Shown: positions 57,709 to 60,691 of the stretch, piece by piece
How the letters are laid out: every line of letters begins with the position of its first letter
Numbering within the stretch: the stretch's first letter is position 1
Source: an uncultured Pelagibacteraceae bacterium
GTDB taxonomy: Bacteria; Pseudomonadota; Alphaproteobacteria; Pelagibacterales; Pelagibacteraceae
Length of the DNA stretch: 64,000 nt
Reading direction: 5' to 3'
Assembly (NCBI GenBank): GCA_902635335.1
Contig: CACPNO010000001.1
Location: 95,018-159,017, forward strand
The notes under the pieces: model-generated
Databases searched by the model: none
The model's input: the letters and a program-made list of their open reading frames with translations, nothing else
Told to the model about the DNA's origin: nothing
Translations under genes and position numbers: made by a program

Positions 57709-58305
57709 TTACTTTTCTAATAAAAAAATACCTAATTCAGATATTAGGTTTTTATATCTCAAATTTGAAGTTGTAATATTTGAAATTTTCTCTCCATTTA
57801 AAGAAATTGATTTATAAATATTAACTCTTTTGTTGTTACAAAAATTATAAAAGTCTTGAATTGTGCACATATGTAGGTTGGGAGTATTATACCATTGATA
57901 AGGTAAATTCTTTGTAACTGGCATTTCTCCTTTTAATAGTAAATCTAGTCTAACTTTCCAATGTCCGAAATTTGGAATTGTAACAATTACCTTTTTTCCC
58001 ACTCGTAATAAATTTTCAATGACGTTTTCTGGGCTCATAAATGCTTGAAGAGTTTGACTTAGTATTACGTAATCAAATGATAAATCTGGAAATTGCTTTA
58101 AATCATTCTCTGCGTCACCTTCAATAACAGTTAAACCATTAGACAAACATTTTTTTACTTTTTCTTTAGAAATTTCAAGCCCTCTGACATCTACCACTTT
58201 ATTTTTTGATAGATATTCCATCAAAATTCCATCACCACATCCAACGTCCAAGACTCTTGATTTTTCCTCAATAAACTTGGAAATGACCTTAAATTCTTCT
58301 TTCAT
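57709..58305 (-). CDS. metW: Methionine biosynthesis protein MetW
   Basis: VLDVGCGDG, LSQTLQ, PNFGHW and WYNTPNLH. Follows metX. Confidence 0.95.
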   Translation of the reverse strand: MKEEFKVISKFIEEKSRVLDVGCGDGILMEYLSKNKVVDVRGLEISKEKVKKCLSNGLTVIEGDAENDLKQFPDLSFDYVILSQTLQAFMSPENVIENLLRVGKKVIVTIPNFGHWKVRLDLLLKGEMPVTKNLPYQWYNTPNLHMCTIQDFYNFCNNKRVNIYKSISLNGEKISNITTSNLRYKNLISELGIFLLEK

Positions 58306-59422
58306 TAATATTAGAATAAGTTGTATTTAAATAATTTTTAATAGTGCTTAAAAAATCTGGTACGTCTAACAAAAAGGAATCGTGGCCTTTGTCAGTTTTA
58401 ATTTCTACAAAACCAACATCGGCACCAATTGCATTAAGCGCTATTACAATATCTTTATTCTCAGAGGTTGGGTATAACCAATCAGAAGTAAAGGAAATGA
58501 TGAAAAATTTTGTTTTGGTATCTTTAAATGCTTTGGAAAGGTTTCCTCCAAATTGTTTAGTTAAATCAAAATAATCCATTGCTCTAGTGATATACAAATA
58601 ACTATTTGCATCGAATCTATCTACAAATACAGAACCTTGATATCTCAAATAACTCTCAATTTGAAAGTCAGCATCAAATCCAAATTTTAAATCAGATCTT
58701 TCTTGAAGATTCCTTCCAAACTTTTCTTGCAAACCTTGTTTTGATAAATAAGTGATATGAGCAGCCATTCTAGCAACAGCCAAACCTTTATCTGGATTTG
58801 TTGATTTTTCATCATACAATCCTTCTTTCCAATTGCTATCAGACATTATTGCTTGTCTTCCAAGTTCATTAAAAGCAATATTTTGAGCTGAATGACTAGC
58901 CGTACAAGCAATTGGTAAAGCTACTCTAGCCTTATTCGGAAAGTTTGATACGAATTGTAAAACTTGCATTCCACCCATGGATCCGCCAGCAACTGCAAAT
59001 AATTTTTCTATTTTTAAGTAATCTAATAGATTGTATTGAGCGTTAACCATATCGTTAATTGTAATTACAGGAAAATTTGTACCTATAGGTTTATTGGTCA
59101 AAGGATCAATAGTTCCTGGTCCGTAGGATCCCATACATCCACCAATGACATTCGCACATATAACAAAAAATTTATCTGTATCGAATGACTTGCCTGGACC
59201 AACTGCATAGTTCCACCAACCCTCTTTTTTTGTAATTGGATTGATGCCTGAAGCATACTGGTCGCCAGTTAGTGCATGAAAAATTAATATAGCATTATCT
59301 TTCTTCTCATTAAGATTTCCATAAGTCTCATAAGCTAAAGGAAATTTAGATATTTCTTTGCCACAATCAAGTTTAAGAGTTTTCTCAATAATTATATTTT
59401 TCATTTTATTTAAATTGCTCAT
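58289..59422 (-). CDS. metX: Homoserine O-acyltransferase
   Basis: HALTGD, GGSMGG, SDWLY and GHDSFLL. Alternative start at 59404. Confidence 0.96.
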   Translation of the reverse strand: MSNLNKMKNIIIEKTLKLDCGKEISKFPLAYETYGNLNEKKDNAILIFHALTGDQYASGINPITKKEGWWNYAVGPGKSFDTDKFFVICANVIGGCMGSYGPGTIDPLTNKPIGTNFPVITINDMVNAQYNLLDYLKIEKLFAVAGGSMGGMQVLQFVSNFPNKARVALPIACTASHSAQNIAFNELGRQAIMSDSNWKEGLYDEKSTNPDKGLAVARMAAHITYLSKQGLQEKFGRNLQERSDLKFGFDADFQIESYLRYQGSVFVDRFDANSYLYITRAMDYFDLTKQFGGNLSKAFKDTKTKFFIISFTSDWLYPTSENKDIVIALNAIGADVGFVEIKTDKGHDSFLLDVPDFLSTIKNYLNTTYSNINERRI

Positions 59423-59455
59423 AAAAATTTTGCTGAAATGAATTGTGAGAAAAAA

Positions 59456-59510
59456 AACTTATTTAGCAGGTTTTTTAAAGCGCTCGCAATTCAGTTAAAT
59501 CAGCGCAAAA
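59456..59510 (-). ncRNA. SAM-II riboswitch aptamer upstream of metX
   Basis: Minus strand GCGCTGATTTAACTGAATTGCGAGCGC-tttaaaaaacct-GCTAAATAAG has the SAM-II core (UGAUUU, UUGC, GCUAAA), and its pseudoknot pairings are maintained by compensatory changes. Confidence 0.92.
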
Positions 59511-59512
59511 AG

Positions 59513-59541
59513 CTTTTATAAGATAGCTTTTTAGATGTCAA
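59513..59541 (-). promoter_or_regulatory. Probable promoter for SAM-II/metXW
   Basis: TTGACA at 59541-59536 (minus) and TATAAAAG at 59520-59513 just upstream of the aptamer. Confidence 0.55.
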
Positions 59542-59605
59542 TTTTTTTAGAATTATTGATTGTATTATCTAATTATCTGACTATTTATTAATAAAACTAA
59601 GCATC

Positions 59606-60691
59606 ATGAATACTCCATTATTTAGAAAATTAAACCTAGAGGCCTACAAGCCTGGAAGATCCTTCTTAAATAAAAAAAAAAGTATTATAAAACTATCAGC
59701 TAATGAGTCAGCCCTAGGCATGAGCAAAAATGCTAATAAAGCAATAATAAAATCCAAAAATAATATATCAAAGTATCCAGATGGAAAATTTAAGGAATTA
59801 ACATCCACAATTTCAAAAAAATATAATTGCAAGCAAAATCAGATTATCTGTGGATCAGGATCTGATGAAATTATTCAAATGATTTGTCAGTTATTTTTGA
59901 ACAAAGGAGACGAAGTAGTCGTGCCAGAGTACAGTTTTTTAATGTACAGAATTTATGCAAAAATAGTAGGGGCAAAAGTTATATTTTCTAAAGAAAAAAA
60001 TTTTAAAGTCTCAAACGATGAAATTATAAAAAAAACAACTAATAGAACTAAGATTGTATTTATAGCTAATCCAAATAATCCTACAGGCACATATATTTCT
60101 AAAAATCAACTGTTGGACCTAAGGAGGCGATTAAATAAAAAAATTTTATTGGTGGTTGATGATGCGTATTTTGAATATATGTTAAATAAAGATTATAGAT
60201 CAGGCCTGGAACTTTTTAAAAATCAAAATAACGTATTTATATTAAGAACTTTTTCAAAAATTTATGGTCTTGCATCTTTAAGAGTTGGATGGGGTTATGG
60301 AAGTAAAAAAATTATAGATGCTTTATATAAAATTAAACCACCATTTAATGTAAATAAGATAGCACAGGAATGTGCAGTTGAATCTCTTAAAGATAAAAGT
60401 TTTATAAAAAAATCTGTAAAACATAATCTAGATTGGGCTATAAAAATAAAAAAAATAATGAATTCTTATAGTATTCAAACAAATGAAGTTGGACCAAATT
60501 TTTTTCTTTTAGATTTTAAACGTTGTAAGTTAAATGCAAGATTTGTTGAGAAAAATCTTGAAAAATCAGGAATTGTTCTTAGAGAGATGAATTCGTATGG
60601 TATTAAAAATTGTTTAAGGCTTACAATTGGAAATGTGAAAGAAAATATACTTTTTATTAAACAGATGAAAAAAATTTTTAAAAATGTTTAA
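59606..60691 (+). CDS. hisC: Histidinol-phosphate aminotransferase
   Basis: KLSANES, GSDE, NPNNPTG, DDAY and RTFSKIYGLASLRVG. Confidence 0.94.
   Translation: MNTPLFRKLNLEAYKPGRSFLNKKKSIIKLSANESALGMSKNANKAIIKSKNNISKYPDGKFKELTSTISKKYNCKQNQIICGSGSDEIIQMICQLFLNKGDEVVVPEYSFLMYRIYAKIVGAKVIFSKEKNFKVSNDEIIKKTTNRTKIVFIANPNNPTGTYISKNQLLDLRRRLNKKILLVVDDAYFEYMLNKDYRSGLELFKNQNNVFILRTFSKIYGLASLRVGWGYGSKKIIDALYKIKPPFNVNKIAQECAVESLKDKSFIKKSVKHNLDWAIKIKKIMNSYSIQTNEVGPNFFLLDFKRCKLNARFVEKNLEKSGIVLREMNSYGIKNCLRLTIGNVKENILFIKQMKKIFKNV

Follow-up and report, generated by a model that had tools for sequence, protein, structure and literature searches.

The window, a stretch of 64,000 nucleotides from a Pelagibacter (SAR11) genome that is 64% complete and has a GC content of ~29%, carries metX with metW overlapping its end, and the two genes probably form one operon. 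metX is separated by 184 nt from a divergent aminotransferase gene, and a SAM-II leader lies inside this interval on the minus strand (Table 1). The aptamer thus has metX and metW behind it, the leader position of a methionine/SAM gene that is expected of its class. It is an already known SAM-II riboswitch: Meyer et al. 2009 (PMC2704228; Rfam RF00521) place SAM-II before SAR11_0217, which is the same element, although their paper names the aptamer alone (70 nt, 30% GC). The promoter consensus scan did not list a metX promoter, but both boxes can be read by eye. The TTGACA box starts 35 nt ahead of the start of P1 in 102 of 109 related loci, and the -10 region of the relatives reads TACAAA or TAAAAG at identical spacing. 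From the fixed distance between TTGACA and P1 we infer that the RNA starts at P1, with its first base at about G59506. A promoter abutting P1 has already been remarked on for the SAM-II class by Corbino et al. (PMC1273637), and the metX leader agrees with this.

Table 1. Features of the metX locus, in positions of the window
Feature	Position	Strand	Basis and remarks
-35 box of the metX promoter, TTGACA	59536..59541	-	Read from sequence; present in 109/109 related loci
-10-like box, TAAAAG	59513..59518	-	Read from sequence; 17 nt past the -35 box, P1 ~7 nt downstream
SAM-II aptamer	59456..59506	-	Core motifs aligned to RF00521 and RF01726, both sub-threshold
P1, GCGCU with AGCGC	59506-59502 with 59484-59480	-	Five standard pairs in at least 114/115 distinct leaders; aligned to model P1
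L1 and P2 5' strand	59501-59485	-	Part of the SAM-II aptamer; the P1-enclosed loop reads GAUUUAACUGAAUUGCG
Aptamer strand targeted by the anti-aptamer strand, TGAATTGCGAG (UGAAUUGCGAG)	59493-59483	-	
A-rich L3	59479-59468	-	
P2 3' strand	59467-59456	-	Tail GCTAAATAAG (GCUAAAUAAG) at 59467-59458
U8 run	59450..59457	-	First two U able to extend P2a; in the alternative fold predicted to pair with the L3 A run 59476-59471 (helix iii)
Anti-aptamer strand, CTCACAATTCA	59439..59449	-	Predicted to pair with 59493-59483 (helix ii), 10/11 complementary
TCAGC	59432..59436	-	Predicted to pair with GCTGA 59504-59500 (helix i), extending the alternative hairpin; in the minimum-energy fold of the window leader
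metX, homoserine O-acetyltransferase	58289..59422	-	NCBIfam NF001209, 506 bits (cut-off 331); AUG at 59422
metW	57709..58305	-	Pfam PF07021, 249.7 bits; NCBIfam TIGR02081, 240 bits (cut-off 189.5)

Rfam at its gathering thresholds gives no match at the metX leader. When the models were run on a 301-nt stretch, SAM_alpha (RF00521) reached 28.1 bits, short of its cut-off of 36 (E 1.2e-4), and RF01726, the long-loop SAM-II model, likewise 28.1 bits, short of 44; in five complete genomes of the genus, SAM-II scores 24-31 bits, below the Rfam value of 36 in all five. The low score stems from AT-rich, short variable parts, and the core is intact: the GAUUU, UUGC, and GCUAAA motifs are all aligned to the consensus of both models. 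The sole Rfam family that passes its gathering cut-off in the window is the ffh sRNA motif (RF01793, 18253-18305, plus strand, 58.7 bits). P2b has standard pairs in all 115 distinct leaders and P2 shows double changes relative to other genera (C-G to U-A, U-A to A-U, and A-U to G-C), so the H-type pseudoknot is supported by covariation; the U-A to A-U change is also seen in one metagenome copy (L203). The earlier note had read an intact SAM-II core on the minus strand, with three compensatory pair swaps relative to the crystallised aptamer. Both points are borne out, and the swaps hold against the natural leader L032 (C16-G50 to U-A, U18-A48 to A-U, and A24-U40 to G-C), which fits all six construct positions named in PMC3326309 (U1, C6, U7, A25, G26, and G52). 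SAM binding has been demonstrated for the near-identical aptamers from the Sargasso Sea and A. tumefaciens (PMC3326309, PMC1273637) and, by analogy with these, the aptamer of the window is presumably a SAM binder.

The aptamer and its location being known, it is the expression platform, conserved across the genus, that is unusual. We collected metX leaders from 22 congeneric species plus a single one from a neighbouring genus, from 80 further Pelagibacter genomes, and from ~110 marine metagenome contigs; motifs were counted in 101 Pelagibacter-genus genomes, folds were predicted with RNAfold for 93 distinct genus leaders, and pairs were counted in 115 distinct leaders. In all 101 genomes, the aptamer is followed by the same order of elements: a run of 6-9 U immediately after G, 0-2 bases, the motif CUC-x-CAAUUC-A/G, a spacer of free sequence, and the AUG. 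The U run recurs throughout the ~110 metagenome contigs, and the CUC-x-CAAUUC-A/G motif in nearly all of these copies. The spacer between this motif, the anti-aptamer strand, and the AUG measures 7-19 nt in the 93 distinct leaders; that of the window is UUUCAGCAAAAUUUUU, which places the AUG 16 nt past the strand, without an SD, at a start that is conserved across relatives. Runs of at least seven U abound in this genome, with 2706 counted over 807 kb and most of them within genes, and by itself the U run is uninformative; it is its conservation that tells.

The anti-aptamer strand is complementary to an aptamer segment made up of the P2 5' strand and some of the P1 3' strand, so that helix ii disrupts P2 and P1. 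At ten of the 11 positions in the anti-aptamer strand, a pair forms in 110-115 of the 115 distinct leaders (at least 96%). The remaining position, which faces a C of the aptamer, is paired in none of the 115 (A in 69, U in 39, C in five, a gap in two, and never G) and is the only one of the 11 to vary freely. Other changes in the strand are few and mostly A to G facing U, which keeps U.G pairs; in one genome (L090), a G inserted in the aptamer strand is matched by an extra C in the anti-aptamer strand. Because the aptamer strand is nearly invariant, a scan of the metagenome copies for compensatory changes in helix ii yielded nothing beyond compatible changes and a handful of weakened variants (L172 and L272). 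Pairing between the U run and the L3 region is predicted in 93/93 minimum-energy folds, with pair counts of 111-115/115; the lengths of the L3 A run and the U run give r = 0.10 over 214 leaders, which is uninformative. Helix i is limited to certain clades: it is found in the clade of the window and some others (as UCAGC, UUAGC, or UUGGC) and is missing where the spacer is A-rich. The U run and the 11-mer, together with UCAGC where it is present, make up one continuous anti-aptamer strand.

The complementarity of helix ii exceeds chance. The alternative hairpin of helices ii and iii is the predicted minimum-energy fold of every one of the 93 distinct genus leaders; with the 11-mer shuffled, they lose 5.2 kcal/mol on average. 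In the clade of the window, the alternative hairpin is predicted at -16.7 kcal/mol, compared to -6.9 kcal/mol for P1 alone. Since the pairing is kept in 115 leaders and recurs in 93/93 folds, comparative analysis indicates that the metX leader has two mutually exclusive folds and that the second is under selection through its anti-aptamer strand. We regard this, together with the identity of the aptamer, the genus-specific platform, and the off switch seen in mRNA (below), as the firm part of the analysis. The earlier note had located the U8 run, CTCACAATTCA, and TCAGC correctly, and the complementarity that it described, at 10 of 11 positions in the aptamer strand and between TCAGC and GCTGA, is real. 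It had also named covariation of the anti-aptamer strand in SAR11 metX leaders as a check; what such leaders reveal is pairing retained in 110-115 of 115, with changes that are compatible rather than compensatory save for the single G/C insertion pair. A limited literature search found no prior description of this expression platform, which is confined to Pelagibacter and a single neighbouring genus.

Sister genera have the same aptamer followed by a classical GC-rich terminator or an SD-like run. In seven genera (g2-g5, g8, g9, and g11), the metX aptamer is followed by GCCCAG-UUUAG-CUGGGC and nine U, and the loop and 3' strand of this terminator are complementary to the aptamer's CAGCUAAA; these leaders have a classical terminator with an antiterminator. 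Most of these genera also have a short U run past the aptamer, the place of which is taken by different bases in two of them. We rejected this run as evidence of a pause or of a first terminator, as it is merely the loop of the antiterminator hairpin. Four other genera (g10, g12, g15, and g17; L119-L127, L133-L138, L150, and L153-L156) have a short-L3 SAM-II with GAGGA or AAGGA in its 3' strand, then a small conserved hairpin (e.g., AAAUCGC..GCGAUUU), with the AUG ~25-30 nt from the SD-like run. This may be a third type of platform, in which an SD acts across the hairpin or the hairpin is a weak attenuator. In genus g14 (L128-L132, L151, and L152), no SAM-II aptamer was found before metX, the start of which overlaps the end of the upstream gene; riboswitch control of metX has there been lost or was never present. 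The HTCC1062-type genome, in which the ffh motif and the glycine riboswitch lie where they have been published for HTCC1062, has a metX leader of the window's type, with the same aptamer, a U7 run, and then CUCACAAUUCA, which in the window is found at 59449-59439 directly past U8. At bhmT, it has two riboswitches in a row, first SAM-II with a classical terminator and then SAM-V with an SD. We note that its TPP riboswitch (L287:120-208) also scores below the Rfam cut-off (43.3 bits versus 54.3); the start codon of the transporter lies within the P1 3' strand and an AGGGAG within the aptamer, a compact direct occlusion unlike the metX leader.

The crystallised Sargasso Sea metX SAM-II (PDB 2QWY; Gilbert 2008) is of the same class, and precedes the same gene, as that of the window; the cores are identical apart from the three compensated pair changes. 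It has been described as SD-sequestering (PMC3326309, PMC9373788). The leader type that the crystal construct fits (L032, also L149 and L148) belongs to another Pelagibacteraceae genus, and its natural sequence continues into GCCCAG-UUUAG-CUGGGC-U9, with the metX AUG beyond U9. The SD-masking reading is therefore probably wrong for the native context of the crystallised RNA, and the description fits neither of the natural leader types that we found, that of the window or that of L032. Unlike the L032 type, the window has no GCCCAG terminator. Nor does it have an SD-like purine run in the P2 3' strand at 5-10 nt before the start: the strand ends in AAUAAG, the AUG is 35 nt downstream, and the AAG of the tail is not kept in relatives, which have AUG, UAG, or UUG instead. 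The 19 nt before the metX AUG are predicted to pair with the anti-SD at +1.2 kcal/mol. True SD-sequestering examples do exist within the genus (L283 and L288). The earlier note had stressed a U tract in place of an SD, and the pseudoknot strand is indeed without one; the observation carries less weight than it was given, as an SD (GGAG, GAGG, or AGGA) stands ahead of just 10 of the 51 long ORFs in the window and its absence is the rule here.

Terminator-type SAM-II leaders (metX of the sister genera, bhmT of HTCC1062, and many alphaproteobacterial metA/metZ; Corbino 2005, PMC1273637) have three traits in common with the leader in the window: a promoter directly against P1, SAM as the off signal, and a competitor strand that pairs with an aptamer strand when SAM is absent. 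The competitors differ. In the terminator type, the partner of the competitor is the P2 3' strand (CAGCUAAA with UUUAGCUG), and the competitor also provides one half of the GC-rich terminator. In the window, its predicted partners are L3 and the strands P2 5' and P1 3', and no terminator hairpin comes after it.

Published arrays of HTCC1062 (Smith et al. 2016, Data Set S1, PMC5069961) give values for SAR11_0217 (metX) of 6.89 in control and 8.13 in sulfur-limited cultures, both in exponential growth. If the values are log2, the change that we compute from them is 2.4-fold (Welch p 0.002); in the same data, SAR11_0219 rises 2.8-fold and the divergent neighbour SAR11_0216 is unchanged. The operon mRNA is thus lower when sulfur, and presumably SAM, is plentiful, and the metX leader acts as an off switch that is visible in mRNA. 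Of course, the control cultures also show a rise on leaving exponential growth, so promoter or growth phase could cause the change. Our literature search found no Term-seq or other 3'-end data for SAR11.

We suggest that it is the exposed leader strand that is read. Without SAM, the leader would zip outwards from the hairpin of L3 and the U run into a hairpin of ~55 nt, the base of which would end 7-19 nt before the AUG, leaving almost no naked leader outside the ribosome footprint in the expressed mRNA. With SAM, the pseudoknot and triplex would hold L3 and both switching strands, and the 26-38 nt from the U run to the AUG would remain single-stranded; this exposed stretch would let Rho load or RNase E cut, giving less full-length mRNA. 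The stretch consists of 47% U, 18% C, and 3.6% G, and its C-minus-G skew is in the top 2% of the 5' regions of the genome. The C-richness does not count as independent support, since it follows, at least in part, from the pairing with the G's of the aptamer. Rho and RNase E/G are found in all five of the complete genus genomes (G023, G041, G066, G087, and G120; 99%-complete) and Hfq in none; binding of Hfq to the U run was considered and rejected, as its Pfam family was not found in these five genomes.

The riboswitch of E. coli lysC and the ribB and mgtA leaders act by exposing RNase E or Rho sites. They share with our proposal the logic that the ligand-bound fold leaves single-stranded a stretch that lowers the mRNA; they differ in that they also mask the SD, and enzyme action in the window is something we propose from sequence. 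Riboswitches that uncover an RNase site once the ligand is bound have been described (PMC9373788).

We favour exposure to Rho or RNase E because it gives every conserved element a job. It also fits the gap of 7-19 nt between hairpin and AUG, the direction and the mRNA level of the control, and the mismatch that stays unrepaired, a hint that the hairpin has to be kept from growing too strong. Against it, the start region is predicted to be equally or more open in the SAM-bound fold, so that ribosomes might protect the mRNA, and Rho would normally need more than ~35 nt to load. Both the role of the exposed strand as the element read and the choice of enzyme are our best guess. The full statement, in which a known SAM-II switch has a genus-specific anti-aptamer platform and its SAM-bound fold exposes a G-poor leader to Rho or RNase E, is put forward tentatively; even with its firm part included, we rate it at somewhat less than an even chance.

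The earlier note had proposed that the ligand-stabilised pseudoknot itself serves as the terminator. SAM-locked P2 in the exit channel would act as the terminator stem while the polymerase is on the U run, releasing an RNA of ~60 nt, and read-through RNA would refold to the anti-aptamer hairpin. The geometry of this idea stands, in that the P2 3' strand adjoins 6-9 U without a spacer in 101/101 genomes as in an intrinsic terminator, and control at the mRNA level in the observed direction is what it predicts. Moreover, in the clade of the window the alternative hairpin is far more stable than P1 alone, which suggests that SAM may count only during transcription, before the anti-aptamer strand is made, and favours a decision at the U run. 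The remaining evidence leans the other way. An intrinsic terminator has a stable GC-rich hairpin at a run of at least about six U; the leader has the run and lacks the hairpin, and a terminator scan of 59300-59700 found none. As a plain hairpin, P2 is predicted at +2.8 kcal/mol at 37 °C, a calculation that leaves tertiary and SAM stabilisation outside, compared to the genome's own terminators, for which 16 gene-following U runs have adjacent hairpins of -8 kcal/mol or below, most of them -14 to -21 kcal/mol. P2a, which lies beside the U run, is poorly kept, its A-U pair being broken in 22/115 leaders and its U-A pair in 20/115. The U run is already accounted for by helix iii, and the proposal has no task for the invariant anti-aptamer strand or its unrepaired mismatch. 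Finally, where SAM-II does terminate, at bhmT of HTCC1062 and at metX of the seven sister genera, it uses a classical terminator. We consider a pseudoknot terminator unlikely, though it is the strongest of the alternatives to leader exposure. As a separate observation, genuine terminators are strikingly GC-rich (e.g., GGGCCC..GGGCCC plus U8) for a genome of such low GC content.

Less likely again, in our judgement, is translational control without an SD, which the earlier note had raised as its second possibility. Here, one of the folds would hinder binding of 30S or S1, for example through the freed strand pairing around the start codon or the pseudoknot trapping the subunit, and the change in mRNA would be secondary. 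With so few genes preceded by an SD, AU-rich RNA that is open must be what initiation relies on. The hairpin base keeps a distance of 7-19 nt from the AUG, and other SAR11 riboswitches act on the start site, the TPP aptamer covering the AUG and SAM-V holding AAGGAG. The accessibility calculations give the idea no support, however. From -15 to +11, the predicted unpaired probability is at least as high with the aptamer fixed in place (0.52-0.57) as in the free fold (0.46-0.55) at 15, 25, and 37 °C, and from -12 to +5 around the AUG it is 0.60 with the aptamer fixed and 0.52 in the free fold. The predicted openness goes the wrong way, and we rejected, in its present form, the idea that local structure masks the start site. 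Nor does the anti-aptamer strand prefer the metX start region (-2.8 kcal/mol) over 51 other starts (-2.2 kcal/mol), and on this ground we also rejected a three-state model that had the freed strand paired to AUGAAU or AUGAG; the spacer has no conserved motif. Two further candidates were discarded: an in-frame AUU within the anti-aptamer strand as an alternative start, as it is in frame in just ~57% of leaders, and a 5' leader helix pairing with the AUG, which was seen in one fold and uses sequence upstream of the inferred transcription start, outside the RNA.

That the U run is a pause site giving SAM time to bind, with the bound pseudoknot prolonging or releasing the pause so that polymerase kinetics decide, has a precedent in the interplay of preQ1 riboswitch pseudoknots with paused polymerase and draws on the U run being the sole conserved element between the aptamer and its competitor, but we find it improbable, as a polymerase on the U run would still enclose the P2 3' strand and the sister-genus U run is an antiterminator loop, exchanged for other bases in two genera.

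Among pseudoknot riboswitches, SAM-II is a textbook case. The member studied best was taken from SAR11 metX leaders and is routinely called SD-masking. The crystallised leader type runs into a classical terminator, and the Pelagibacter type has neither a terminator nor an SD. A practical consequence of our analysis is that Rfam cut-offs overlook the metX SAM-II in every genome of the genus that we tested, the five complete genomes and the window. Pelagibacter is the most abundant marine heterotroph, and the readout of its metX switch would show how a sensor is coupled to its output in a streamlined cell that is mostly SD-less and has no Hfq; it could bring to light either an aptamer with a second role as terminator or a switch working solely through exposure of the mRNA. 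Were the pseudoknot the terminator, sensor and terminator would be one, with no separate hairpin and with a downstream strand that only erases the sensor in read-through mRNA, and the metX leader would be the most compact transcriptional off-riboswitch known.
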